NCBI GenBank assembly: GCA_964431545.1
Contig: CAYSLC010000009.1
Span: 1 to 53,428, forward strand
Direction of reading: 5' to 3'
Origin: an uncultured Desulfobacteraceae bacterium
GTDB taxonomy: Bacteria > Desulfobacterota > Desulfobacteria > Desulfobacterales > JAABSP01
DNA: 53,428 bases
Shown: positions 513 through 40,109 of the stretch, piece after piece
Position numbering within the stretch: the first letter of the stretch is position 1
How the letters are laid out: the number at the start of each line of letters is the position of its first letter
Made by a program: the position numbers and the translations under genes
Notes under the pieces: generated by a model
What the model was told of the DNA's origin: nothing
The model's database searches: none
Seen by the model: the letters and a program-made list of their open reading frames with translations, nothing else

Positions 513-1934
513 ATGCGGCGATCCGGTCCGGTTTTCCGCGCGCTTTTTTTTCTTTCCTCCATTCTGCTCCCGCTCCCCTGGTGTTTCATCGGAGGTACGC
601 CCTTGGGCCCCGAACCGGCGAGGGCGGAAAACCGTCTCCCGTCCCTTCCGGAGACCGATCCCTTCGGCCGAATCGAATCGATCCACCTCTATCGGGTTTT
701 GGACGGAAGGAATCAGAACCTGGTCCTTTCCGGACCGGACCTCGAAGCCGGGGATCCCCTGCGGGTGGAGGGCCATATCAGCGGCATCGTGGTCTTCTGC
801 GGCTCGGCGCTGACCGTGGAGGTGGGTCGGCGTCGGTTCGACCGCATCCGGATCAACCGGGACGGAAGCCTCTCGGCCCGCTACCACGGGACACTGGACC
901 CTTCGGAGATTCCCGGCGCCGGCGCCCAAAGCGGGTACTTCGAATCGGTGGATCCCGGGGAGGGGCCGAACGGCGGGGATAAACGGCCGCGCGGGCCGGG
1001 CTATTCCCTCTTTCCCAAGATCCGCGGCGACGCCATTCACCGGGGCCATCGGTTCGATATCCGGTTCGCCGCCTCCACGGGCGAACGGACCCTGGAAATC
1101 CGCCAGGAGGGCTACCGGCGGGTGGTGCTCCCCGACGCGGACGAGGACGGGCCGCGGTTCAATTACGTCGGCTCCCGCATGGGCGGCTTGACCGAGCGGG
1201 TGGAGGATCTGGGCCGTCGACTGCGGGCGATCTCCAGGGGCATCGCCCAGGTGGAAGAGGCCCTCGAGGGGGGGCTGGTCTCGGATGTCGACATCGTCGA
1301 CCGGGAGGAGATCGAAAACGCCCTCACCCTGGAAGAGAGCGACCACATCTGGATCTACATCGACACCCTTCGCGGGGAGCCCATCCCTGAGCTGGAGACC
1401 ATTGCGGCCCACGAAACCCTCCACAAGTTCGTCGACCGCCATGCCGTCACCCGGAACACGGAAATCCGGAGGCTCTTCGCGGACCTGCGGGGGTTTTCCC
1501 CCTTCTCGTGGGAGCGATTCCTCCTGGTGACCCAGGGGACACTGCCGGAGGAATCCCCCGAGCCGCCCCCCCAAACGGCGCTGTTCTTTTCGTTCATCAA
1601 TGAGAAGCACTATCTGGAAGACCGAAAAGGGGGCCACGCCCACGAGAATCTGGATGAGTTCTGCGCCTCATTCCTCCACACCACCCTCTATCCCCACCGG
1701 TTCCGCGGGAACCTCCGCCGCCCCCTGCGGACGGCCGAAGGACCCGAGGGCGGCCGGCGCCTCACCGATCAGGAACGGCAAAAGATCAAGGAGCTGTATG
1801 GCCGGAGCCTGCGGATCTTTACCGAAGCCCTCTGCGGTGAAGGCTCCGGAAAAGGATCCTCGGCGTTGTTGTCCGCCTGGCGAGAGACCCTTCGGATGAG
1901 GGGGGAGGGGCATCCGGCGGAGCAGGGGATCTGA
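513..1934 (+). CDS. hypothetical secreted protein with HEXXH motif (putative zincin-like metallopeptidase-like), 473 aa
   Basis: ATG preceded by GAGGAGGA SD. Hydrophobic N-terminal signal-like segment (LFFLSSILLPLPWCFIGG). Internal AAHETLHKFVDRH (HEXXH). No other family recognised. Confidence 0.5.
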   Translation: MRRSGPVFRALFFLSSILLPLPWCFIGGTPLGPEPARAENRLPSLPETDPFGRIESIHLYRVLDGRNQNLVLSGPDLEAGDPLRVEGHISGIVVFCGSALTVEVGRRRFDRIRINRDGSLSARYHGTLDPSEIPGAGAQSGYFESVDPGEGPNGGDKRPRGPGYSLFPKIRGDAIHRGHRFDIRFAASTGERTLEIRQEGYRRVVLPDADEDGPRFNYVGSRMGGLTERVEDLGRRLRAISRGIAQVEEALEGGLVSDVDIVDREEIENALTLEESDHIWIYIDTLRGEPIPELETIAAHETLHKFVDRHAVTRNTEIRRLFADLRGFSPFSWERFLLVTQGTLPEESPEPPPQTALFFSFINEKHYLEDRKGGHAHENLDEFCASFLHTTLYPHRFRGNLRRPLRTAEGPEGGRRLTDQERQKIKELYGRSLRIFTEALCGEGSGKGSSALLSAWRETLRMRGEGHPAEQGI

Positions 1935-1960: not shown

Positions 1961-4603
1961 TCAGGGGAGCACCGCCTCCACGGTCCGCTTGATCTCCGCC
2001 ACCTGCCGCCCGGCCTCCACCTTCTGGCCGTCGAAATCCCGCACGTAGAAGACATCCACCACCTGGTCCACTTGGGTGGCGATCTTGGCCAGCCAGACGT
2101 CGAGTCTGCACCGGAAGAGGGCGTCGGTCAGCAGGAAGAGCAGTCCCGGAAAATCCCAGGTGAAGACCTCGATGATGGTGAAGAAGGTGGAGGTCTCGTT
2201 GTCCACCTCCACCCGGTGGGGTTTTTTGAGGGTGGGCGGTTTTTCGTATCCGTACTCGGCGAGCCGCTCCCTGAGCTGGGCCCCCAGGTCGATCCTTCCC
2301 GCCAGGGCCTCCAGGACGTCCTCCCGGATCTTCTCCCATTTCTGAACCTCGTAGATCCGGTCCGGGGGCGGCTTCACCCGGAAGATGTCCAGCGCATGGC
2401 TGTTTCGCCAGGTGTAGATCTGAGCGTTGAGGATATCCACGCCGTTGAGGGTGAAGGCCCCGGAGATTTTGGAGAAGAGACCCGGGCAGTCCCCGGCGCA
2501 GACGGTCACCTTCCGGGCGCTGGCGTCGGGAATCCGCTCGATCTTCCAGGCGAACCGCCGGTCCCCCATGGAGCGGAACAATGCGATGTGGTCCACCATC
2601 GACTCGATGGGGGTCTGAAGCAGGTATCTCGGCGACATCACCTTGAGGACCGAATCCGCGGCCGCCCGCTCTCCATCGGCGCGGAAGGAGCGGCGCACCG
2701 CCTCCTTCTTTTTCTCCACCATCTCCACGGCCTCGCTGGTGGCGAGTTCACCGCGCTCCAGCGTGTTGAGGACATTGAGGTAGAGACCCTGCATCAGGGA
2801 GAGGGACCAGCTGTTCCAGGCCTTGGGGCCGGTGGCGATGGAGTCGGCGACCGTCAGGAGGTAGACCATCTTGAGCCGTTTGACCTCGCCGATCCGCCGG
2901 GCGCAGAGGATGGCGGTCTCCTCGTCCTGGATGTCCCTCCTGGCGGCGGTCTTGGCCAGGAGCAGGTGCTCCCTGACCAGAAAGGAGACGGTGTCGATCA
3001 TCCCCTCGTCGTAGCCCTTTTCGGCGAGGACGCCCCGGACCAGGTCCGCCCCCTTCTCGGAGTGGTTCCCGTCCGGCTCCCCCTTGCCGATGTCGTGGAG
3101 GAGGGCGGCCCAGAGGAGGGTCTTCCGGTCGTCGAGTTCCCGGTAGAGTTCTCCGCACAGGGCGTCCCGCGTGGGGTCTTCCCCGGTGCCGAAGGCCTTG
3201 AGGATCCGCACCGTGCGAAGGGAATGTTTGTCCACCGGGTAGAGGTGGTATTCATCGTACTGGATCCGGTGAACGATGGTCCGGAACCTGGGGATGAACC
3301 GGACCAGAAAGCCGGTGTTGAGCATCTCGTTGAGGACGTTGAAGGTTGCCGTGGGGGAGACCAGCACCCGCTCGAAGGCGGCCACCATCTCCGGGGAGGA
3401 GCGGAAATCGGTGTCCACCAGATGGAGGAAGCTGCGCACCAGCCGGCCGGCCTCCAGGCTCAAGGGGAGCCGGAGCCGCGCGCTCTCCTCGAAGATCCTG
3501 ATCAACAGCTCCCGATGGGCGAGGATCCGCTCCGGGGAGGTGAACCCGAGCATGTTCCCCTTCACCTCGATCCCCGCAACAGCCGTCTTCCCGGGGTGCG
3601 CCCCGTCGACGTTCCGGTGTTCCAGGGCGTAGACGAAGGTGTCGTGGAGATGCTTGATGAAGTTCATCTGCTCGTGGAGATCGCCGAGGAACCGCTCCAC
3701 CGGCTGCTGCCCGTCCTCCGCCTCGTAGCCGAGCCGTTTGGCCACCTGTTCCTGGTAATCGAAATGGAGCTGGTCGTACTTCCGCCCTGCCAGGTGGTGG
3801 AGGTGGTTCCGGACCCTCCAGATGAACGACAGGGCCCCGGACATCTCCCGGAACTCTTCGTAGGAGAGGTATCCGTAAAATTCGAGATCCCGGGGTCGAT
3901 GGATCTCCGACTGGATCCGCGCCACCCACATGATGGTGTGGTAATCCCTGAGGCCCCCGCGGCCTTCTTTGAGATTGGGTTCCAGCAGGAAGGAGGAATC
4001 CCCGAAGGCGATGTGGCGCTCCCGGTTGGTCCGAACCAGCCGGTCCACGAACGCCTCGGTGCGAAGCGCGATCACCTCCCGGCGGAATTTCTTCATCAAC
4101 TCGGCGAACAACGGGGACATGCCGCAGACGAACCGGGCGTCCAGCAGGGCGGTGAGCACCTGAACGTCCTCCTCCGGGATGGCGATGGGCTCCCGTAGGG
4201 TGCGGATGGTGTGGCTTACGTGGAGCCCGATGTCCCACAAGGGGTAGACGAGATCGGCGACGAGGCGCTCCGCCGCGTCGGGGATCCCGTTTCCGAAAAG
4301 GATCAGCAGGTCGACGTCCGAATGGATGCACTGCTCGCCCCGGCCGTACCCCCCCAGGGCCACGACGGCATAGGGGATCCGGTCCTCCCCCGGCCCGAAG
4401 CCGGCTTGAACGGTCTCGCACCGGTCGTTGAAGTAGGTGTCGAGGAGCAGGGTATGCTCCTTCAGAAAGTCGGGTTCCCGATCCTCCAGAAAGCCCTCCA
4501 TCAGATGACCGCGCCGCTGTTTAATTCGATCGACTGCGGCTGCCCCGGCGTGCTTCATCTCTTTTCGCTCCCCTCCGGCCCCGCTTCCAGATGGTGCCTC
4601 CAC
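1961..4603 (-). CDS. glnD: [protein-PII] uridylyltransferase / uridylyl-removing enzyme GlnD
   Basis: 880-aa ORF containing the nucleotidyltransferase motif GGYGRGE...SDVDLLILF, an HD domain (LLHDIGKG) and C-terminal ACT-like region. The ORF-track start is GTG at 4603; an alternative ATG (MKHAG) at ~4558 would give an ATGA overlap with the glnE stop. Confidence 0.9.
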   Translation of the reverse strand: MEAPSGSGAGGERKEMKHAGAAAVDRIKQRRGHLMEGFLEDREPDFLKEHTLLLDTYFNDRCETVQAGFGPGEDRIPYAVVALGGYGRGEQCIHSDVDLLILFGNGIPDAAERLVADLVYPLWDIGLHVSHTIRTLREPIAIPEEDVQVLTALLDARFVCGMSPLFAELMKKFRREVIALRTEAFVDRLVRTNRERHIAFGDSSFLLEPNLKEGRGGLRDYHTIMWVARIQSEIHRPRDLEFYGYLSYEEFREMSGALSFIWRVRNHLHHLAGRKYDQLHFDYQEQVAKRLGYEAEDGQQPVERFLGDLHEQMNFIKHLHDTFVYALEHRNVDGAHPGKTAVAGIEVKGNMLGFTSPERILAHRELLIRIFEESARLRLPLSLEAGRLVRSFLHLVDTDFRSSPEMVAAFERVLVSPTATFNVLNEMLNTGFLVRFIPRFRTIVHRIQYDEYHLYPVDKHSLRTVRILKAFGTGEDPTRDALCGELYRELDDRKTLLWAALLHDIGKGEPDGNHSEKGADLVRGVLAEKGYDEGMIDTVSFLVREHLLLAKTAARRDIQDEETAILCARRIGEVKRLKMVYLLTVADSIATGPKAWNSWSLSLMQGLYLNVLNTLERGELATSEAVEMVEKKKEAVRRSFRADGERAAADSVLKVMSPRYLLQTPIESMVDHIALFRSMGDRRFAWKIERIPDASARKVTVCAGDCPGLFSKISGAFTLNGVDILNAQIYTWRNSHALDIFRVKPPPDRIYEVQKWEKIREDVLEALAGRIDLGAQLRERLAEYGYEKPPTLKKPHRVEVDNETSTFFTIIEVFTWDFPGLLFLLTDALFRCRLDVWLAKIATQVDQVVDVFYVRDFDGQKVEAGRQVAEIKRTVEAVLP

Positions 4604-7487: not shown

Positions 7488-9797
7488 CTACCGGACCACC
7501 GCCAGCTTCACCCGGGCGATCCCCATCTCGATCATGTCGATGACGCCGGCGGCATGTCTGGAGAGATCGATCACCCGGTTGTCCACATAGGGGCCTCGAT
7601 CGTTGATCCGCACCACCACGGCCTTTCCGTTCTCCAGATTGGTCACCTTCACCTTGGTACCGAAGGGCAGGGTCCGGTGGGCGGCGGTCAGCTCCCGGGC
7701 GGTGAAAATCTCGCCGTTGGCGGTCTTTCTCCCGATGAAAAATCCGCCGTACCAGGAGGCGACCCCCTGCTGAAAGACCGACGCGGGGCGGGCGGGCGTC
7801 TCCCCCGGCGATCCCCTTCCCGCGGCCGCGGCCATCCGGTCCTTGAGGTTCCCGATGCTCTCCCGGACCAGGGCGGTGTGGAGATGGCCCTCGGGCAGGG
7901 ACTCCCTGAAGATCCGGAGGGCGGTGTCATAGGCGGCCAGGGCCTCGACATCCTTCCCCAGATCCTCCAACGCCCCGGCGAGTCGATTGCCGATGGCCGC
8001 CGCCGCGAGGCTCCCCTTGCCCTGGACGGCTTCGGCGATGGCCAGGGCCTTCCGGTAGTTTTCCACCGCGGCCTCGTACTCCCCGAGAAAGTGCCAGGAG
8101 AGCCCCAGGTCGTTGTAGGCCTCGCCGGTGCGCGCGTGGGTCTCCCCGAAAACCTTTCGATCCACGGCCACGGCCTGGTTGTAATAATCGATGGCCTTCT
8201 CGAACTTCCCCTGGGCGCGCAGCACGCCGGCCAGGTGGGTCAGATCGGCGGCCACCCGGGGGTGCCGCCCCCCGAATGCCTCCCGATCGATGGAAAGGGC
8301 CTCTTCGAACCGCTCCTGTGCCCTGGCGTACGCCCCCATGTGGTGAAGGGCGAGGGCATGGTTGTTCAGATAGGCGGCCACTTCCGGATGATTCCCGCCG
8401 TAGACGTCCCTGGCGATCCCCACCGCCTCCTGGAACAATTCCTCGGCCTGGCGGAAGTTCTGGAGATCGTACCAGGCGAGTCCCAGCCGATTGAGATCCA
8501 CCGCCACGTCGAGGTGCCGGTTTCCATAGGCCTTTCGATCGATGGCCAGGGCCCGTTCATAGTGGCGGATCGCCGTTTCGTGCTCCTCGACCCCCTGCCA
8601 GGCCCGCCCCAGACGGTTCAAGGTGGCCGCCACCTTGGGATGGTCCCGCCCGTGGGCGGATTCCCGGACCTCCAGCACGCTCTCCAGAAGCGGGATCGCC
8701 CTGTCGTAGGCCTGGAGTCCGAGCCAGGCGACGGCCAGGTTGTCCCGGTCTTCGGTGACCCTCGGATGGGACTCTGGGTGGTGCTTTCGATCGATGGCCA
8801 GGGCGCGCTGGAACAGCGAGGCCGCCTTGCGGTATTCCCCGAGGCTGTTCCAGGTGAGGCCCAGGTTGCTCAGGTCGGCGGCCACCTTGGGATCCGAGTC
8901 CCCCAGGAGGGTTTCGTGGATGGAGAGGGCCCGCCGGAAGTGCTCGATGGCCCGCCCGTACTCCCCGAGGGTGTGCCAGGCCTGGCCCAGGGTGTTGAGA
9001 TCCTCGGCGACCCTCAAATGGCACTCCCCGTGACGGCGCTCATCGATGGCAAGGACCCGCTCGAAGTAGTCCACCGCCTTCCGGGTCTTCCCGAGCTGTT
9101 TCCAGGCCAGGCCGATGTTATTGAGGAGGACCACCACCTTCTCGTCCTCTTCGCCGAAGTTGGCCCGGTCCAGGACGAGGGCCGCTTCATACTGTTCGAT
9201 GGCCTCTTTGTATCGACCGGATTGTTGGAGGGCGCCGCCCAGGTGGTAGAGGTAGGTGGAGTTCTCCGGCGCAAGCTCCACGGCCCGCCGGTGGTAGGTT
9301 CCGGCGGCCTCGAAATCGGCCCGGAGTTCCTTGAAGACCCCGAGCTGGAAGGCTTCGGCGGCGGCGGCGCGTCTGACGCGGATCAGGGCATCCAGCCGGT
9401 CGGCCAGGGAGCGTTGGAGCAGGGTTTCAAAGCCCTCCACGTCCATGGCGGCCGGCGTCTCCTGGGCTTCGGCGCCCGGTTCCCGCCCTTCCGGCCGCCG
9501 GCCGAGGCGGACCACCAGCCGGCGGTACCACCGGAGCCACTTGTCCATCTCGGACCGGAGCCGGTCACCGGCCATGCCGCGCTCCTCCAACAGCCCCCTG
9601 AGGCCGTCCCGGAGCGCCCGCGGGATATCCGGCGCCGACGCTTCGTCCCCGCCGGTCTCCGGCGCCTGGCGTTCGGCCGGACCGGAAACCCGGGGCTCCC
9701 CGGACGCCTCCGTCGGCGCGGCGTCGGGAATTCCCCAGGCGGTTCCCCCCCAGGAGAGGAGAAGCAGGAGAATCGAACAGAGGAGGGGACGAGTCAT
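7488..9797 (-). CDS. secreted TPR-repeat protein with C-terminal RlpA-like double-psi beta-barrel (DPBB) domain, ~770 aa
   Basis: Start at [22 protein letters not shown] (signal peptide) inside the longer track ORF 7488..10286; its ATG overlaps the stop of the upstream ATPase gene (ATGA). About 10 tandem 42-residue TPR_10/12-like repeats (HP.VA..LNNLG.AW..LGEY.KA...). C-terminus [20 protein letters not shown]...[26 protein letters not shown] matches the RlpA DPBB fold. Confidence 0.75.
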
Positions 9798-11344
9798 GCT
9801 CCGCCTCCCCAGGCCCCGGCGCCGCCCCGGTCCAGGCTCCGATACTGGACGGCTTCGGAGACCTGGGCGACCCCGATCGACGCCTCTCCGTCCAGGTCGG
9901 TGATGGTCCGGCTGATCTTCAGAACCCGGTTGTAGGCCCGGGCCGAAAGCCCCAGCTTGTCCACGGCCGTCTCCAGGAGACGGCTCGACTCGGCATCCAC
10001 CTCGCAGTGCCGCTTGATGTGCCGGCTGGCCATCTGGGCGTTGCAGTGGATCTTGGACCGGGTGAACCGTCGGGCCTGGACCCGCCGGGCGGTCACCACC
10101 CGGCGCCGGATCTCCGAGGAGGCTTCCGCCGGCTTCTCCCCCACCAGGTCCCGATAGGGGACCGTCGGCACCTCCACGTGGATGTCGATGCGATCCATGA
10201 GGGGACCGGAGATCCTGGACCGGTACCGGCCCACCTGGACCCGGCTGCAGGTGCAGTCGTGGTGGGGATCCGAAAAGTAGCCGCATGGGCAGGGGTTCAT
10301 GGCGGCGATGAGCATCACGCTGGCGGGGTAGGTGATGGTGGAGGTGGCCCTGGAGATGGTCACCCGCATGTCCTCCAGCGGCTGCCGGAGGACCTCCAGC
10401 ACGTGCTTCTTGAACTCCGGCAGCTCGTCGAGGAAGAGAACCCCGTTGTGGGCCAGGCTCACCTCCCCCGGCCTGGGGAGATGGCCGCCGCCGATCAGCC
10501 CGGCGTCGGAGATGGTGTGGTGGGGGGAGCGGAACGGCCGGACCGTGACCAAGGCCTGATCCCGGTCGAGCAGCCCCACCACGCTGAAGATCTTGGTGGT
10601 CTCGATGGCCTCCTCGAAGGAGAGCGGCGGCAGGATCGAGGGGATCCGCTTGGCCAGCATGGTCTTTCCGGAGCCCGGAGGCCCCACCATGACGAGGTTG
10701 TGGCCGCCGGCCGCGGCGATCTCCAGGGCCCGTTTCACGTGTTCCTGGCCCATCACCTCGGAGAAGTCGGGGCCCCCCTCGCCGTCTCTGTCGAAGATGG
10801 CGACCAGATCGGTCCGTTCCGGTTCGATCTCGGTGAACCCACGAAAAAATTCCATGGCCTGGGAGAGCGTCCGGACCGGAAGGACCCGGATCCCCTCCAC
10901 CACGCTGGCTTCGGAGCTGTTCTCGGCCGGGACCAGGATCCCTTCGTATCCCGCCTCCCTGGCCGCGATGGCCATGGGCAGGGACCCCCTCACCGGCTTC
11001 ACCCGCCCGTCCAGGGAAAGTTCCCCCAGAACCAGATGATCGGCCAAAGCCTCCTTGGGGGCCAGCCCGGTGGCCGCCAGGATCCCCAGGGCCATGGGCA
11101 GGTCGAACCCCGTCCCCTCCTTTTTGATGTCGGCGGGGGCCAGATTGACGGTGATCCGATCGTCGGGAAAGGGGTATCCGGCGTTGTTGACCGCCGCCTT
11201 GACCCGCTCCTTGCTCTCCTTCACCGCCGCTTCGGGCAGGCCGACGATGGTGAACAGGGGGAGCCCCGGGGAGATGTCCACCTCCACTTCCACCAGGTAG
11301 GCATCGATGCCGATCACGGCGCTGCTCAGGACTTTCGCCAGCAA
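9794..11344 (-). CDS. YifB/ComM family Mg-chelatase-like AAA+ ATPase
   Basis: 516 aa with an N-terminal Lon-like substrate-binding region, Walker A ([12 protein letters not shown]), ChlI-type motifs ([12 protein letters not shown]) and a C-terminal Mg-chelatase helical domain. Its stop overlaps the start of the TPR-RlpA gene. Confidence 0.9.
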
Positions 11345-11706
11345 AAAAACCTCTCCCGGATTATGGACCGATCCCTGATCCCAAAACCTCTCCCGCCTGC
11401 TTCCGATGGTATTTCACAGAGCCGCCATATGAAGAAAGACGTGTCGCATAAAAAAGATTCCCTGGTGCTCGACCGCCCGTCGAGTCTTCGGTTTATACCC
11501 GATGCTCCGCGCCATTACAATCTTTTTATCTCCTGCAATCCGTACACAAGAGAGTGGCCGTCCGCTGTTCCCGTGGATGGGATCCCTCAGAATGGCATTG
11601 ACTTTATGGGTAAACGCGTTAGATAAATGCAATCGTTGACAACGACGTACCGCGATCCGGGGCCTTGCTCAGGAGACGCCGGACACCGACAAGATTCAGT
11701 TGGATG

Positions 11707-11736
11707 TTGCATAAATACAACAAAATGATCTATACT
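11707..11736 (+). promoter_or_regulatory. candidate sigma-70 promoter for lpxC (TTGCAT-N18-TATACT)
   Basis: -35 ttgcat at 11707-11712, 18-nt spacer, -10 tatact at 11731-11736, about 90 nt upstream of the lpxC ATG in an AT-rich patch of the divergent intergenic region. Confidence 0.3.
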
Positions 11737-11827
11737 TCAGGAAGAAAAGGATCAGCGCGGCCCCGGAGGCCGGGGCGTGTGGAAGCGGAATTTGAGGAAA
11801 CCTAACCAACGATGGGATTTTTCAACC

Positions 11828-12810: not shown

Positions 12811-13392
12811 ATGACCGGGAAGAGCAAGGTTCTGCGACATCCCGGCGTGGTTCTGTCGGCCGTTCTGGCCGTTCTCATGGCAACGGCCTCCGCCCATGCC
12901 CAGGAGGCCCGTCTGAGTGAACTGCGGGTCAGCAACCGGAACAATGATTTCGTCCTCTACCTCAAAGTGGAGGGGGCCTTCACCGAGGAGATCAAGGAGG
13001 CGGTGCTGAGCGGCGTCTCCACCAGCTTCACCTTCTTCGTCATATTGAGCCGGGTCCGTTCCTACTGGTTCGACAAAAAGATCGCGGATATCACCATCAC
13101 CCACACCCTCAAATATAACAACATGAAGAAGGAATTCCTGATCCGGCGTTCCTGGGAGGGGGACCGGACCGTGGTGGTCAAAACCTTCTCGGAGGCCCGC
13201 CGGCTGATGACGGAGATCGACAACATGAGCATCATTTCCCTCAGCATGTTGAAAAAGGGGGAACAGTACCGGCTGATGACCAAGGCGGAACTCGGCAGGA
13301 TCACCCTGCCCCTTTACCTCCATTATGTCCTCTTTTTCGTCTCCCTCTGGGACTTTGAAACCGACTGGTACACCATCGATTTCATCTATTGA
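12811..13392 (+). CDS. DUF4390 domain-containing periplasmic protein (NtrY-associated)
   Basis: 193 aa with signal peptide (AVLAVLMATASAHA). Recalled DUF4390 pattern (FVLYLKVEGAF...KKIADITITHTLKYN). Sits immediately upstream of ntrY, as is typical for this family. Confidence 0.55.
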   Translation: MTGKSKVLRHPGVVLSAVLAVLMATASAHAQEARLSELRVSNRNNDFVLYLKVEGAFTEEIKEAVLSGVSTSFTFFVILSRVRSYWFDKKIADITITHTLKYNNMKKEFLIRRSWEGDRTVVVKTFSEARRLMTEIDNMSIISLSMLKKGEQYRLMTKAELGRITLPLYLHYVLFFVSLWDFETDWYTIDFIY

Positions 13393-13430
13393 TCCCCGAA
13401 CGCCGCCCACCGGACCCCGTACCGCCGCCC

Positions 13431-15686
13431 ATGAGAGCCAACCGCTTCGCCAACAAGCTCTCCCCCCACGGCCCGGCCATGGATCGAAAACGCCGCCGGC
13501 GGGAGATCCTTTTGATCCTCGTCATTCTCGGGCTGGTGGCCCTGCTCACCACCCTGGAGGTCCGGGTCATCCGGTTCGGCTCCGAGTTTCCCATCTCCAA
13601 CACCATCCTGATGTTCATCCTGATCAACATCAACCTGTTGCTGTTGATCCTCCTCATCTTCCTGGTCTTCCGGAACCTGGTGAAGCTTCTCTACGACCGG
13701 CGCCGAAGGATCATGGGGGCCGGGCTCCGGACCCGGCTGGTGGTGGCCTTCGTCTCCATCACGCTGATGCCGACGGTGGTGCTCTTCTTCTTTTCGATCC
13801 ACTTCATCACCAGCAGCATCGAGTTCTGGTTCAATGTTCCGGTGGAACAGGCCTTGGAGAATTCCCTCTCCGTGGGGGGAAGGCTCTACCAGTACTTCGA
13901 GGACCATAACCGGTTCTTTCTGAAACGGATCGCCTACCAGGTCCGGACCCGGAACCTTCTGGATCCGTCGAAGCGGGAGGAACTCGACCACTATGTGGAT
14001 GTGGCGCAGCGCGCGTTCAACCTGGAAGCGGTGGAGGTCTACGATACCCGGAGGGTGAGCGATCGGAAATCGAACCGCCTCTCGTCGGCGTTCAAGGACC
14101 TGTTCGGAGAGCACGGGCTCCGGGGGGTCTCCCCCCACGATCTCCGGGGAGAGCTGAACGCATCCGGGGTCCGCTCCTTTTCGGATCCGATCCCCATCGG
14201 GGAACTCGCACGGACCATCTCACGGATCCCCTACGGCGCCGCTCTCGAGGAGACCCGCGGGTTCGTGGTCCTCTCCTTTCTGATCCCCACCGCGCTTTCG
14301 GAGGATTTGGCCTCCATCTCCCGGGGATATGAGGAGTACCAGCAGATCAAGCTCCTCAAGGAGCCCATCCAGCTCACGTACTACATCACCATCTCCATCG
14401 TGGCCCTTCTGGTGCTCTTCTGCGCCGTCTGGTTCGGTTTCCATCTGGCCAAGACCATCAGCATCCCCATCAAGGACCTGGCCGACGGCACCCGGCGGGT
14501 GGCCGAAGGGGATCTCCAGTTCACCATCGCGCGGGGAGGCGACGACGAGATCGGCAGTCTGGTCGATTCCTTCAACAAGATGACCCGGGACCTGCGCACC
14601 AGCCGGGAGCAGCTGGAACTCTCGGCCCAGATGCTCCGGGAGCAGAACGTGGAGATCGAGGAGCGGCGCCGGTATATGGAGATCGTGTTGGAACACATCT
14701 CCACCGGGGTGATCACCCTCGACGCCCGCGGGGCGGTGGTCACGGTGAACAAGTCGGCGGAGCGGATGCTCAACCTCCCGGAGGAGCAACTTCTGGGCCG
14801 AAGCTACGAGGCCCTGCTGGGGGGGCAGCACGGGGATTTGGCCCGGCAGGTCCGGGAGGACCTCTCCCGCTCCCGGGAAGGGGCAGTGGAGTTCCCCCTC
14901 CGCCTGACCATCGGCGGAGCCCCCCGGATCTTTCGGATCCATGTCAATGCCCTCAGGGATGAATCCGGACGGCACATGGGGATCGTCATGGTCTTCGACG
15001 ACCTCACCGAACTGGAGAAGGCTCAGCGGATGGCGGCCTGGCGGGAGGTGGCCCGGCGGGTCGCCCATGAGGTCAAAAACCCCCTGACCCCCATCAAGCT
15101 GTCGGCCCAGCGGCTCAGCCGAAAGTATGCCGAACGGCTCAACGAGCCGGTCTTCGAGGAATGCACCCGGATGATCATCGATCACGTGGACCTGATCCGG
15201 AACCTGGTCAACGAGTTTTCCGCCTTTGCCCGGTTCCCGACCCCGGACCCCGGGCCGTGTGAACTGGCCGACCTGGTGGAGGAGACGGTGGCCCTCTACC
15301 GGGAGGGGCATCCCACCATCACCTTCCGCGTGGAGGCCCCGGAATCCCTGCCGACCCTTCACCTCGATCGTCAGCAGATCAAGCAGGCCCTGATCAATCT
15401 GGTCAACAACGCCGTGGGCGCCGTCAGGACCGGCGGGACCGTGGCCATCCGTCTCCGGGCCGAGCCCGAGGAAGGGGTCGTCCGGCTCGAGGTGGCCGAC
15501 GACGGACCGGGGATCGGAGACGAGGACAAGGCCCGCCTCTTCGAACCCTACTTCTCAACCAAAAAAAGCGGCATGGGTCTGGGGCTGACCATTGTCAGCT
15601 CCATCGTGGCGGACCATCATGGAAAGATCCGGGTCCGGGACAATACGCCCCACGGGGCCATGTTCATCATCGAACTGCCCGTCTGA
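13431..15686 (+). CDS. ntrY: nitrogen-regulation sensor histidine kinase NtrY (TM-HAMP-PAS-HisKA-HATPase)
   Basis: ATG at 13431 (MRANRFANKL) inside track ORF 13389..15686. Multiple TM helices, HAMP (KDLADGTRRVAEGDL), PAS, H-box (VAHEVKNPLTPIKLSAQRL) and G-boxes (DDGPGIG, GMGLGLTIV). Confidence 0.8.
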   Translation: MRANRFANKLSPHGPAMDRKRRRREILLILVILGLVALLTTLEVRVIRFGSEFPISNTILMFILININLLLLILLIFLVFRNLVKLLYDRRRRIMGAGLRTRLVVAFVSITLMPTVVLFFFSIHFITSSIEFWFNVPVEQALENSLSVGGRLYQYFEDHNRFFLKRIAYQVRTRNLLDPSKREELDHYVDVAQRAFNLEAVEVYDTRRVSDRKSNRLSSAFKDLFGEHGLRGVSPHDLRGELNASGVRSFSDPIPIGELARTISRIPYGAALEETRGFVVLSFLIPTALSEDLASISRGYEEYQQIKLLKEPIQLTYYITISIVALLVLFCAVWFGFHLAKTISIPIKDLADGTRRVAEGDLQFTIARGGDDEIGSLVDSFNKMTRDLRTSREQLELSAQMLREQNVEIEERRRYMEIVLEHISTGVITLDARGAVVTVNKSAERMLNLPEEQLLGRSYEALLGGQHGDLARQVREDLSRSREGAVEFPLRLTIGGAPRIFRIHVNALRDESGRHMGIVMVFDDLTELEKAQRMAAWREVARRVAHEVKNPLTPIKLSAQRLSRKYAERLNEPVFEECTRMIIDHVDLIRNLVNEFSAFARFPTPDPGPCELADLVEETVALYREGHPTITFRVEAPESLPTLHLDRQQIKQALINLVNNAVGAVRTGGTVAIRLRAEPEEGVVRLEVADDGPGIGDEDKARLFEPYFSTKKSGMGLGLTIVSSIVADHHGKIRVRDNTPHGAMFIIELPV

Positions 15687-15743
15687 CGGAAGGCGGATCT
15701 CTTTTTTCGACAGCGACCACGGAAAACAGCCGAAGGAGTTGCC

Positions 15744-17108
15744 ATGTTCCCCACCATTCTGATCGTCGACGACGAACCCTCCATCCTCCAATCCCTCAGC
15801 GGCCTGCTGTCGGACGAGGGGTTCGAGGTCATCACCGCCTCCAACGGGTACGAAGCCCTGAAGACCATCGACCGTGAATCCCCGGATCTGGTGCTGCTGG
15901 ACATCTGGATGCCGGGCATCGACGGCATCGAGACGCTCAAACAGATCAAGCAGGAGCATCCCTTCATCCAGGTCATCATCATCACCGGCCACGGAACCAT
16001 CGAGACCGCCGTGAAGGCCACCAAGCTGGGGGCGTTCGACCTCATCGAAAAGCCGCTTTCCATCGACAAGGTCATCGTGACCATCAACAACGCCCTCAAC
16101 TTCCGCCGGCTGGAGGAGGAGAACCGCTACCTGCGGAAAAAGACCATCGAGAAGAACGCGATCAGCGGCCACAGCCCCCCCATCATCGCCCTGAAAAAGG
16201 CGATCGCCGGGGCCGCTCCCACCGACACCTGGATCCTCATCACCGGGGAGAACGGCACGGGCAAGGAGCTGGTGGCCCGGACCATCCACCAGATGAGCCT
16301 CCGGGCCGAAATGCCGCTCATCGACGTCAACTGCGCCGCCATCGCCGACGGGATGATCGACAGTGAACTCTTCGGCCGCGAGAAGGGGGCCCTGCCCGAA
16401 AGCCCCGGCCGCCGGCGGGGAAAATTCGAGCTGGCGGACAAGGGGACCCTCTTTCTGGACGAGATCGCCGACATGAGCCTGGCCACCCAGGCCAAGATCC
16501 TTCGGGTCCTGCAGGAACAGCGGTTCCAGCGGGTCGGGGGGGACCGGGTCCTCCGGGTGGACGTACGGGTCATCGCCGCCACCAACCGGGAGATGACCAC
16601 GGAGATCGAACAGGGGCGGTTCCGGGAGGACCTCTACCACAGGCTCAATGTCTTCCCGGTCCGGGTGCCGCCCCTGCGGGAACGCAAGGAGGACATTCCG
16701 TCCTTGGTGGAGACCTTCATCCGGGAGTTCGCCCGGAAGAACCGGTGCGCCCCCAAGGGGATCTCGCCGGAGGCCCTCGCCAGGCTCCAGACCCACTCCT
16801 GGCCCGGGAACGTGCGGGAGCTGAAGAACCTCATCGAGCGGCTGATGATCCTTTCCGACGGCGAGGCCATCGAGGCCTCCGATCTGCCCCACCCGTTCCA
16901 TCCCGCCGTGCATCCCGAGGCCGATCCCGTCGACGTCCGCCTCTTCGATCAGGATCGTCTCAAGGACGCCCGCAGGCTGTTCGAAAAGGAGTTCATCCAT
17001 CGGAAGCTTCTGGAAAACGGGAACAACATCGCCCGGACGGCCGAGGCCATCGGGGTCGAGCGCAGCTACCTCTACCGGAAGCTGAAGGCCGTCGGGGAGG
17101 AGGGGTGA
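15744..17108 (+). CDS. ntrX: sigma-54-dependent response regulator NtrX (REC + AAA+ sigma-54 activator + HTH)
   Basis: REC domain (ILIVDDEPSI...DLVLLDIWMPGIDG), Walker A GENGTGKE, GAFDL-like sigma-54 contact region, ESELFGREKGA and a C-terminal Fis-type HTH. Confidence 0.8.
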   Translation: MFPTILIVDDEPSILQSLSGLLSDEGFEVITASNGYEALKTIDRESPDLVLLDIWMPGIDGIETLKQIKQEHPFIQVIIITGHGTIETAVKATKLGAFDLIEKPLSIDKVIVTINNALNFRRLEEENRYLRKKTIEKNAISGHSPPIIALKKAIAGAAPTDTWILITGENGTGKELVARTIHQMSLRAEMPLIDVNCAAIADGMIDSELFGREKGALPESPGRRRGKFELADKGTLFLDEIADMSLATQAKILRVLQEQRFQRVGGDRVLRVDVRVIAATNREMTTEIEQGRFREDLYHRLNVFPVRVPPLRERKEDIPSLVETFIREFARKNRCAPKGISPEALARLQTHSWPGNVRELKNLIERLMILSDGEAIEASDLPHPFHPAVHPEADPVDVRLFDQDRLKDARRLFEKEFIHRKLLENGNNIARTAEAIGVERSYLYRKLKAVGEEG

Positions 17109-32762: not shown

Positions 32763-33057
32763 GGAAAGCGGTCCTCGGCCGACGCCTCAAGCGGAACGGG
32801 AAAGCCTCCGCGCCGAACACGGCGAAAGAGCGGTGGGGCCTTGCGGGCTTGAGGAGGAAAAATCTTTGAAAACATTTTAGAAAATGGCAAAGTGCTTGAC
32901 TGGAGGCAGCTGGATACGCTATCAAATAGTCAGTCACTGGAAAAACCGTTAAAAATTCGATTATAGCGGTTTTCCCCGCTTGGTGCACGCAAAAAATCGG
33001 CCCCGCGGAAGGACCGGATGTTCCGGATACCGAGGGGCCAAGCCAAGGGAGGAATGG

Positions 33058-33840
33058 ATGGCATTCAAAGACAATCTGCTGAAAAAGATAGAAATCGACC
33101 GATTGACCGATCGGGTTCTCGACTCCCTGGGCTCCCCCGGAACCACCCGGAAACTCGACAAGGAGGCCATGCGATCGCTCCTGGACAACTCCCCCTATGT
33201 GCCTCGGAAAGAGCGGGACCTGGAGCTGTGGGCCGATCCCGCCCGGTCCGGCGAAGAGCGGATCCTGGTCCTCGACAACGAACTGCCCCTCTACCGGACC
33301 ACCGCCGAGGACGTGGCCCTGCGCAAGAGTCCCACGGTCAAGGAGATGATCAACATCGGCAACGTGGTCAAGATCCTGAGCGACAAGGACGTAAAGCTCA
33401 GCAAGGGGGAGGATACGGTCCGGACGATCCGCTCCGAGGCGATCGGCGGGCTCGACCTCTCCTTCGAGGCGTCGGACATCGCCCAGATCCGGGACGAGGG
33501 CAAAGCGGCCCTGGCCGCGGGGCAGCGAAACGGCGTCCACGAGGCCCTCACCCTGTTTTCCGAACTCCTGTCCTGGCCGCCCGGCCCCAGGGCCTTCAAA
33601 CTCCCCGACTTTCGGGTGCTCTGCGCCCAGCATCCGGGGGACGAGGGGGAGACCATCTGCGGCCCCATCGTGCTCTACCACCCGGAACAGAACCGGCTCC
33701 GGCTCATCGATGACCGGATCGGCACCATGGACGGCCGGAAGATGGAGTTCGTCCGCCAGGTGGCCGTGGGCAAGGAGAAGCCCGACCTGGAGGGAGAGGA
33801 GGTCTTCGGATTCCTCCACAAGGCGGTGATGGCGGCCTGA
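33058..33840 (+). CDS. hypothetical protein (260 aa), upstream of and co-oriented with hybrid kinase
   Basis: ATG at 33058 with SD AAGGGAGG 6 nt upstream (MAFKDNLLKKIEIDRL...). No recognisable domain and no signal peptide. The track ORF 32980..33840 is over-extended. Confidence 0.5.
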   Translation: MAFKDNLLKKIEIDRLTDRVLDSLGSPGTTRKLDKEAMRSLLDNSPYVPRKERDLELWADPARSGEERILVLDNELPLYRTTAEDVALRKSPTVKEMINIGNVVKILSDKDVKLSKGEDTVRTIRSEAIGGLDLSFEASDIAQIRDEGKAALAAGQRNGVHEALTLFSELLSWPPGPRAFKLPDFRVLCAQHPGDEGETICGPIVLYHPEQNRLRLIDDRIGTMDGRKMEFVRQVAVGKEKPDLEGEEVFGFLHKAVMAA

Positions 33841-36703: not shown

Positions 36704-36784
36704 GATCCCGCCCCCGCGGAGGGGGTCCGTGGTCACAAATGTCTTGTCACGGAGACGTTTCCGTGTTATCGGAGAGCCGGTCGT

Positions 36785-36801
36785 CCCGTTTCGGGTTTTT
36801 T
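36785..36801 (+). terminator. weak intrinsic terminator candidate after the hybrid kinase gene
   Basis: cccg-ttt-cggg hairpin followed by tttttt. A stronger GC hairpin (cccccgcggaggggg, 36711-36725) sits just after the stop but has no U-tract. Confidence 0.3.
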
Positions 36802-36885
36802 CACCGGCCGGCGCGAACATTTCCCCGGCTGAAAACCGACCGGCGGCAACTTTTTCCAAAAAGGGCTGAAAGGAGAGAGACGCAA

Positions 36886-37359
36886 ATGACGCAGACCAAC
36901 AAACTCATCACCCTACTACTCGTGGTCGTCCTCGCGGTCTTCCTGCAAGTGCTGTTCGTCTTCGCGGACACCCAGGACTCGCCGAGAAAGGCGGCGATCG
37001 AATTCGCCGAAGCCTATGTCGGATATGACGGGGAGACCCTCGACAAACTGTTGTGCGAGGAAGCGAAGGTGGTCGATGATGTCAACGTGATCAACGCCTA
37101 CCTCTACCGCCAGCGTCAGCGCGCCGAAAACCTGGGGTACAGCATGAACTACATGAGGGACTGCCTCTACCACGTGGACGCGGAAACCCTGGAGGCCGAC
37201 GCCACCCAGGCGAAAGTCCACCTCGCGGCCGAGCGGAAATCGAACCTCCGCAACTTTTTCGGCGGGCAGACCCACCACCTGGAGGAGACCTTCGAGCTGA
37301 TCCGGGAGGACGGCCGCTGGAAGGTCTGCGGCGCCCCCTTGACCCTCCAGGGGACCTAA
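36886..37359 (+). CDS. hypothetical N-terminally membrane-anchored protein (157 aa)
   Basis: ATG at 36886 with SD AAAGGAGAGAGA upstream. Single N-terminal TM (LITLLLVVVLAVFLQVLFVF) and a soluble domain without recognised motifs. Confidence 0.5.
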   Translation: MTQTNKLITLLLVVVLAVFLQVLFVFADTQDSPRKAAIEFAEAYVGYDGETLDKLLCEEAKVVDDVNVINAYLYRQRQRAENLGYSMNYMRDCLYHVDAETLEADATQAKVHLAAERKSNLRNFFGGQTHHLEETFELIREDGRWKVCGAPLTLQGT

Positions 37360-39176: not shown

Positions 39177-40109
39177 ATGGAGGGAGCGATGAGATTACTG
39201 ACCCGATCTGACTTCGACGGCTTGGCCTGCGCGGTGCTGCTGGTGGAAAAGGGGCTCGTCGACGATTATAAGTTCGTCCATCCCAAGGATGTCCAGGACG
39301 GCAAGATCGACATCACCCAAAACGATGTACTGGCCAACGTCCCCTTCGCGGACGGGTGCGGCATGTGGTTCGACCACCACGCCAGCGAAGATGAACGACT
39401 GGATCTGGACAAACTCACCTTCGATGGGGACAGCCGGCCGGCTCCCAGCGCCGCCCAGGTCATTTGGGACTACTACGGCGGAGAGAAGACCTTCGGCGCC
39501 CATCTGCTGCCCATGCTGGAGGCGGTCAACCGGAGCGATTCGGGCAACCTGACCCGGGATGAGATCCTCCATCCCAAGGGGTGGATCCTCCTCTCCTTCG
39601 TCATGGACCCGCGGACCGGGCTGGGGCGCTTCAGGGACTACCGGATCAGCAACTACCAGTTGATGCTCGACATGATCCAGTACTGCCGGACCAAGTCGGT
39701 GGAGGAGATCCTCCGGGTTTCCGACGTCCGGGAGCGGGTGGACCGGTATCTCGACCAGCAGGACCTCTTCGAGGAGATGCTGCGACGGTGTTGCGAGGTC
39801 CACAACAACGTCATCGTCACCAACCTCCTGAACGAGGAGACCATCTACGCGGGGAACCGGTTTCTGGTCTACGCCCTCTTCCCCGACCAGAACATCGAGG
39901 TCCGGGTCATGTGGGGCAAGGACAAGCAGAACGTGGTCTTCACCTGCGGCCACAGCATCCTCAACCGGACCAGCAACACCGATGTGGGAAGCCTGATGCT
40001 CCATTACGGCGGCGGCGGACATCGGAAGGTGGGGACCTGTCAGGTGCCGGTGGCCGACTGGGAGAGGATCCTCGGAGAGATCGTGGGCCGGATGGAGAAG
40101 GACGGGTGA
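39177..40109 (+). CDS. DHH-superfamily phosphoesterase-like protein
   Basis: 310 aa; N-terminal LTRSDFDGLACAVLL and a WFDHH (DHH) motif, as in NrnA/exopolyphosphatase-related DHH proteins. SD AGAGGAAGAG upstream. Confidence 0.6.
   Translation: MEGAMRLLTRSDFDGLACAVLLVEKGLVDDYKFVHPKDVQDGKIDITQNDVLANVPFADGCGMWFDHHASEDERLDLDKLTFDGDSRPAPSAAQVIWDYYGGEKTFGAHLLPMLEAVNRSDSGNLTRDEILHPKGWILLSFVMDPRTGLGRFRDYRISNYQLMLDMIQYCRTKSVEEILRVSDVRERVDRYLDQQDLFEEMLRRCCEVHNNVIVTNLLNEETIYAGNRFLVYALFPDQNIEVRVMWGKDKQNVVFTCGHSILNRTSNTDVGSLMLHYGGGGHRKVGTCQVPVADWERILGEIVGRMEKDG

Follow-up and report, generated by a model that had tools for sequence, protein, structure and literature searches.

A tetratricopeptide repeat array joined to an RlpA-family barrel in a gene downstream of comM in an uncultured Desulfobacteraceae bacterium

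Ordinary RlpA proteins owe their position to a lipid anchor together with a SPOR domain, and the free-standing periplasmic tetratricopeptide repeat (TPR) hubs LbcA, WthA and NlpI serve cell-wall hydrolases in trans. Here we describe a gene in which a TPR array and an RlpA-type barrel lie in a single polypeptide chain. It is located in a 53,428-nucleotide stretch of DNA from an uncultured Desulfobacteraceae bacterium (contig CAYSLC010000009.1 of assembly GCA_964431545.1; hereafter the window, whose coordinates are used throughout), immediately downstream of comM/yifB, the gene for a Mg-chelatase-like AAA+ ATPase. The product, which we call the fusion protein, has a kinesin-light-chain (KLC)-type TPR array ahead of a C-terminal RlpA-like double-psi beta-barrel (DPBB), and the coordinates of its parts and of the flanking genes are collected in Table 1.

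RlpA enzymes cleave glycan strands that amidases have stripped of their peptides, and in this way aid the separation of daughter cells (Jorgenson et al. 2014, as cited in PMC8820737 and PMC12772221). In Vibrio cholerae the predicted active-site aspartate of RlpA is required for its support of growth and the SPOR domain is dispensable (PMC8820737), so that the barrel can work without SPOR. The hubs LbcA and WthA co-purify with RlpA-like enzymes (bioRxiv 2021.07.29.454410; PMC12772221). The arrangement described here resembles that of LbcA in Pseudomonas aeruginosa, WthA in Acinetobacter baumannii and NlpI in Escherichia coli in placing a putatively periplasmic TPR scaffold with an RlpA-type enzyme, and differs in that the connection is covalent; moreover, the repeats of the fusion protein are KLC-type and have no specific sequence relationship to those hubs.

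The C-terminal 95 residues are a canonical barrel of the same family as those of RlpA, the septal ring lytic transglycosylase (P. aeruginosa PA4000 and the V. cholerae protein), and PA4485. DPBB_1 (PF03330) matches residues 676-764 with 91.4 bits (cut-off 28.8; E = 4.5e-26) and the rlpA model TIGR00413 scores 145.3 bits against a cut-off of 82.15, which confirms the RlpA-like C-terminal domain named in the first-pass annotation, a reading of the DNA made before any database was searched. The barrel also matches the solved DPBB protein PA4485 (PDB 4avr) with an E value of 1e-26. Across 131 homologous domains 42 positions reach at least 90% conservation, and the barrel keeps every one of them, including E696, H707, D733 (within NDRGP) and D744 (within IDLS); every motif tested is present (G-x-ASWYG, TANGE, TAAH-x-x-LPF, NDRGP and IDLS). 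The match to the catalytic aspartate, D157 in P. aeruginosa and D145 in V. cholerae, is made by conservation, and both candidate aspartates are retained. The equivalog model for E. coli RlpA, NF007953, gives 99.3 bits and so falls under its cut-off of 201. SPOR (PF05036) has no match in the fusion protein, and the chain ends two residues after the barrel. Relative to classical RlpA, therefore, the fusion protein is without a lipobox and without SPOR and has instead a 650-residue N-terminal extension with 12 TPR pairs; a presumably extracytoplasmic location is what it would have in common with RlpA and PA4485. We note that an RlpA-like DPBB domain is also found in an 899-aa phage 'hub' protein (PDB 8kea chain A; E = 2e-15 to the fusion barrel), so that this barrel also serves phages as a wall-piercing module.

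An AlphaFold model of the whole protein, built from a 50-sequence alignment (mean predicted local distance difference test score, pLDDT, of 81), places six strands in the barrel between residues 676 and 767. At the other end of the chain the leader has an Arg in its n-region and a 13-residue hydrophobic core with a peak 10-residue hydropathy of 3.28, and is modelled as a helix at residues 4-16 followed by disorder at 17-54. Its sole Cys, at position 7, lies ahead of the hydrophobic core with Leu at -1 and does not form a lipobox. Judged from these features of a classical signal peptide the protein is very probably exported, in agreement with its initial description as secreted. The region that follows is modelled less securely, with pLDDT values of 31-57 for residues 17-54 and 43-84 for residues 60-151, and residues 1-180 have zero homologues among 5.8 billion proteins. 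Two thirds of the chain belong to the TPR array, which is recognised by TPR_12 (E = 2e-86, in 8 stretches) and TPR_10 (E = 9e-62, in 9 stretches). The model has 12 helix pairs with pLDDT mostly above 90, of which 11 keep to a strict 42-residue KLC-type period, so that an early estimate of about 10 KLC-type repeats was close. KLC1/2 are the best natural proteins among the best solved relatives of the array, which also include a bacterial KLC-like protein, consensus TPRs and OGT, and a PDB fold search with the model returned generic TPR superhelices only. The linker between array and barrel (residues 661-675) contains no hydrophobic stretch that might be a relic signal peptide.

Within the reach of our searches this fusion is a singleton. 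The 120 nearest homologues of the barrel are 111-326 aa long, against 769 aa here, and none has TPRs; they consist of the barrel alone, the barrel with SPOR (about a third, by hand count), the barrel with LysM, or tandem barrels, and the closest (54-74% identical) are ordinary RlpA-family proteins. The highest-scoring barrel homologues, P0121-P0131, are metagenomic proteins of 190-313 aa that unexpectedly carry two tandem RlpA-type DPBB domains. With a C-terminal 198-residue query spanning the junction, the matches listed were all short, ordinary RlpA proteins, none of them with TPRs. Approached from the TPR side, a DPBB domain is present in 0 of the 270 nearest proteins listed (an exhaustive HMMER search supplied 150 of these and a word-indexed search 120). 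Both sets of counts bear out the suggestion that a TPR plus DPBB architecture is atypical. The full-length word-indexed search was dominated by TPR-only proteins and gave no PF03330 match and no self-match. The contig record lists a 769-residue gene here with no Pfam entry, and an exact-sequence look-up did not return its product, which is apparently neither indexed nor scanned in the collection searched; this may explain the missing self-match. Exhaustive phmmer against 1.84 billion cluster representatives returned giant TPR proteins as its best 150 matches (at least 344 bits) and no orthologue, a search in which a diverged orthologue scoring below 344 bits would be hidden among TPR proteins; when these 150 were searched locally with phmmer, none proved to contain a DPBB. 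A peptide-pattern scan of JGI metagenomes with the full protein gave six weak, TPR-only matches at 23-28% identity. The junction region, searched by tblastn in 72,556 plasmids, had barrel-only matches, none covering 80% of the query, and we found no description of a TPR plus DPBB or RlpA fusion in the full-text literature. The gene looks like a one-lineage gene, and its product, as far as can be read from the sequence, belongs to the RlpA family of enzymes and carries an accessory module without precedent, so far seen in one uncultured lineage.

A context for the TPR half is provided by its nearest relatives, the exported TPR-CHAT and TPR-DUF900 proteins, which are 31-39% identical to the array over about 55-65% of the query. 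The CHAT peptidase domain occurs in about 69 of the 120 TPR relatives ranked best by the word-indexed search (hand count), and 79 of the 268 TPR relatives retrieved have a hydrophobic or lipoprotein-like N-terminal leader. In the four examples scanned for domain order, the leader is followed by a TPR_12 array and then by a C-terminal CHAT domain (P0001, P0007 and P0038) or a C-terminal DUF900 alpha/beta hydrolase (P0032). The fusion protein has this same layout of export leader, KLC-type array of 42-residue TPRs and single C-terminal enzymatic domain, and differs in that it ends in an RlpA DPBB, is without CHAT (PF12770) or DUF900, and has 150 N-terminal residues unrelated to anything found. 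An exported TPR array with a hydrolase is an architectural class and not a curated family. Since the layout is kept and an RlpA barrel takes the place of the usual C-terminal enzyme, CHAT or DUF900, an effector swap is the simplest evolutionary reading, and to judge from domain order the fusion gene looks like the outcome of such a swap on a widespread exported chassis of signal peptide, TPR array and C-terminal hydrolase. The TPR-CHAT and TPR-DUF900 class is itself large (P0001, P0007, P0008, P0010, P0014, P0017, P0023, P0032 and P0038), and several members have almost the same lipoprotein leader, together with a common motif, 'TPKRP..D.PPP.SSEKANEL'; we found no characterisation of this class. 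Assignment of the fusion gene to a defence system was rejected, because PADLOC gave generic TPR matches only.

The scenario that we favour, and regard as more probable than not, is that the fusion protein is a Sec-exported, soluble periplasmic lytic transglycosylase of the RlpA type in which TPRs stand in for SPOR and the lipid anchor. The Sec leader would export the soluble protein to the periplasm, where the barrel, tethered flexibly by about 15 residues to the C-terminal end of the superhelix of 12 TPRs, would cut peptide-free ('denuded') glycan strands as characterised RlpA proteins do. The array would take over positioning or regulation by binding an envelope protein or a peptide partner, a role modelled by analogy on the action of LbcA, WthA and NlpI on cell-wall hydrolases in trans. 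We also offer, tentatively and with some doubt, the further idea that a Desulfobacterales-like lineage has swapped the glycan-sensing SPOR of RlpA for a protein-binding TPR superhelix, such that a protein or peptide ligand, and not the state of the wall, would steer or switch its septal or denuded-glycan transglycosylase.

Several observations weigh against the proposal of an exported transglycosylase with a TPR-based targeting module. RlpA of E. coli, which has the same fold, shows no detectable transglycosylase activity (PMC8820737); residue conservation is therefore no proof of catalysis. The binding of RlpA by LbcA in P. aeruginosa is not direct, and this indirect contact is not needed for RlpA function (bioRxiv 2021.07.29.454410). 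The comparison with the TPR hubs is a functional analogy only, without specific homology to LbcA or NlpI: the NlpI model NF008391 scores 24 bits against the fusion protein (cut-off 250), and no LbcA chain is among the PDB matches of the TPR array at E <= 1e-10, no direct alignment to LbcA or WthA having been made. The signal peptide was called by eye and from hydropathy. Finally, the gene comes from a single metagenome-assembled genome (MAG) and no orthologue is at hand, so that purifying selection on the fusion as a whole is not demonstrable.

At the level of the sequence, the first-pass annotation of the gene proved right throughout. NCBI gene calls and contig-wide junction counts were read on contig JBUDRK010000003.1 of the MAG GCA_054920695.1, on which the same 769-aa product is called from the same ATG. 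The G+C content at third codon positions (GC3) upstream of 9797 is 0.52 in the frame of the fusion gene and 0.90 in that of ComM, and from 9797 onward it is 0.78-0.93 in the frame of the fusion gene, a shift that makes this ATG the earliest credible start. An upstream start at 10286, which would give a 932-aa open reading frame (ORF), was rejected on these values. Downstream starts at residues 70, 75 or 84 were also rejected: they would lose the signal peptide and strand an extracytoplasmic-type domain in the cytoplasm, and they are contradicted by the coding-like GC3 of 0.78 in codons 1-60. The start is thus not further downstream, the GC3 shift, the signal peptide and the NCBI call all agreeing on 9797, and the overlap by which the comM TGA was said to run into the ATG of a gene for a protein of about 770 aa stands, as ATGA. 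GC3 is 0.86 for the fusion gene, uniform along its length and similar to that of its neighbours (0.85-0.91), and no DNA-level tandem repeat was found in it, which argues for an old, resident gene; a recent repeat expansion and a foreign origin were rejected on the same grounds. ORFs at 7554-9935 (+) (793 aa) and 10007-11626 (+) (539 aa), opposite the fusion gene and comM, are shadow ORFs typical of high-GC DNA and not genes.

Table 1. Features of the comM-glnD region and of the fusion gene (window coordinates).
Feature	Coordinates	Strand	Basis
comM/yifB, Mg-chelatase-like AAA+ ATPase, 516 aa, TTG start	9794..11344	-	TIGR00368, Pfam
GGAGG Shine-Dalgarno-like motif GGGGAGGCGGAGCATGA, 6 nt 5' of the fusion-gene ATG, inside the end of comM	9804..9808	-	sequence
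ATGA, comM stop TGA (9796-9794) overlapping fusion-gene ATG (9797-9795)	9794..9797	-	read from sequence
TPR-array/RlpA-DPBB fusion gene, 769 aa, stop codon 7488-7490	7488..9797	-	ORF and start analysis, NCBI call, GC3
Signal peptide, residues 1-22, Sec type, small residues at -3/-1 (A-W-G), without lipobox	9732..9797	-	sequence reading, hydropathy
N-terminal region, residues 23-154: acidic/Pro-rich disordered 23-54, then three helices 60-151	9336..9731	-	model
TPR superhelix, residues 155-660, 12 helix pairs	7818..9335	-	Pfam, sequence register, model
Flexible linker, residues 661-675	7773..7817	-	pLDDT <50 for 661-673
RlpA-family double-psi beta-barrel, residues 676-769	7491..7772	-	DPBB_1, TIGR00413, conservation
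glnE, starting 5 bp past the fusion-gene stop codon	4555..7482	-	Pfam GlnE/GlnD_UR_UTase, junction sequence
glnD, ATG overlapping the glnE TGA in a second ATGA (4555-4558)	1961..4558	-	gene call, junction sequence

The fusion gene is the second of four head-to-tail minus-strand genes (comM, the fusion gene, glnE and glnD), a very tight run of mixed functions, and lpxC lies divergently upstream of comM. As a full-length YifB/ComM member, ComM matches TIGR00368 over residues 5-502 with 645 bits (cut-off 362.4), and in Pfam it matches ChlI, Mg_chelatase and Mg_chelatase_C; its N-terminus agrees with that of its homologues, and it is 77% identical to a Desulfonema magnum protein. The protein itself is ordinary, and what is unusual is its downstream neighbour, which is not conserved. 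We compared 80 loci from one-per-species genomes in which ComM is 53-77% identical, with up to 7 kb of flank on each side; Desulfobacterales MAGs and Desulfonema magnum supplied the closest of them. In tblastn, the barrel, N-terminal region and TPR region of the fusion protein had matches in 0 of these 80 loci and in the source contig only, and the 13 closest loci examined each have a different gene 3' of comM. Nothing on that side is conserved in the way that the divergent lpxC-comM pair is (11344-11777, with an intergenic distance of about 430 bp), which is kept in seven Desulfobacterales-like relatives (L002, L003, L004, L005, L013, L038 and L056). In L003, in which ComM is 77% identical, glnE also lies on the downstream side of comM, separated from it by three unrelated genes (L003 3747-7449): one for a small protein resembling cytochrome c, one for a porin-like protein of 500 aa and one for a methyl-accepting chemoreceptor. 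From this one locus, the comM-glnE interval looks like a variable slot.

The first-pass annotation had also pointed to the coupling to ComM as an unexplained association, and the comparison does not support the idea that it is a meaningful one. A true partnership might consist, for example, of a wall-opening enzyme for DNA uptake made together with the recombination helicase, and the ATGA overlap with its good Shine-Dalgarno motif speaks for it, as does the finding of no promoter-like or terminator-like site on the minus strand between the two genes; it is also generally known that DNA-uptake machines must cross the cell wall. However, the adjacency is absent from all 80 of the genomes with a related ComM, even those in which it is 71-77% identical. 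ComM, a hexameric helicase, works in the cytoplasm on recombination intermediates and drives branch migration in the course of transformation (PMC6158740), and no pilus or competence genes were found in the 53-kb window, in which nothing else is tied to competence, pili, division or wall synthesis. The ATGA is a plain sequence fact and yet not unusual, such overlaps accounting for 2 of the 10 co-directional junctions on the surrounding contig (comM/fusion gene and glnE/glnD), and the same overlap at glnE/glnD indicates that the one at comM reflects tight packing. The link to ComM thus looks like the compact packing of a mixed-function run and not like a functional partnership, for which we see very little chance. 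Since no promoter-like or terminator-like site lies between the genes, co-transcription of comM and the fusion gene is plausible and coupled translation is possible.

Other explanations concern the protein itself. The DPBB could be a non-catalytic anchor that only binds glycan strands, as E. coli RlpA may, and pins the TPR hub to the wall, leaving the array to recruit other envelope proteins; the size of the array, at two thirds of the protein, and the precedent of LbcA and WthA, hubs that organise several wall enzymes, are consistent with this. We consider it unlikely, though, because every strongly conserved RlpA-DPBB position is kept, both aspartates included, and the closest homologues of the barrel are ordinary RlpA-family proteins. 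Less probable again is that the protein is a secreted weapon or conflict effector with the DPBB as a wall-degrading warhead and the array as its sensor or regulator. Its nearest TPR relatives are indeed exported TPR-hydrolase proteins, the phage hub protein offers a DPBB as a wall-piercing module, and a lineage-specific gene in a variable slot between comM and glnE would fit such a role, but there are no secretion-system, immunity or toxin genes nearby, the window is made up of housekeeping genes, the PADLOC matches are generic and the composition is native. It is very improbable, lastly, that a mis-assembly or sequencing error in the MAG has joined a TPR gene to a separate rlpA. A single source contig and the failure to find an orthologue are what an artefact would give; against this, the frame is continuous and GC3 uniform across the junction, and the flanking genes are syntenic with those of relatives (lpxC-comM, and comM followed at a distance by glnE). 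Nor is there a signal peptide or start-site relic before the barrel, and a separate rlpA at that spot could therefore not be exported.

Among the other genes of the window, a 473-aa ORF beside glnD at 513-1934 (+) has a coding-like GC3 of 0.81 and is called as a gene on the contig, with no Pfam match, and coding-like ORFs at 32980-33840 (+), 36739-37359 (+) and 39177-40109 (+) have no Pfam family at E <= 1e-5. Following lpxC, the interval 12811-17108 (+) codes for a DUF4390 protein, a PAS/HAMP histidine kinase resembling NtrY and a sigma-54 response regulator resembling NtrX, and nitrogen-regulation genes (glnE and glnD, and the ntrYX-like pair) thus lie on both sides of the comM/fusion gene pair.

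The fusion has no bearing on ComM biology, the apparent link to competence and recombination being best explained by packing. For the RlpA family, if the fusion protein is real and active as the TPR-directed transglycosylase that we favour, the catalytic barrel would be re-targetable by a swap of accessory modules, here with TPRs in place of SPOR and the lipid anchor. As a natural 'Rosetta stone' the protein would also back the still unexplained association of periplasmic TPR hubs with RlpA-type enzymes, and, were the exchange of SPOR for a ligand-binding superhelix true, it would represent in natural covalent form the association that Pseudomonas and Acinetobacter show in trans. That same case would supply the first exported TPR array plus hydrolase chassis with a recognisable substrate, peptidoglycan. 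Because its enzymatic end has a known substrate class, the fusion protein may then provide a foothold for understanding the function of the TPR-CHAT and TPR-DUF900 proteins.

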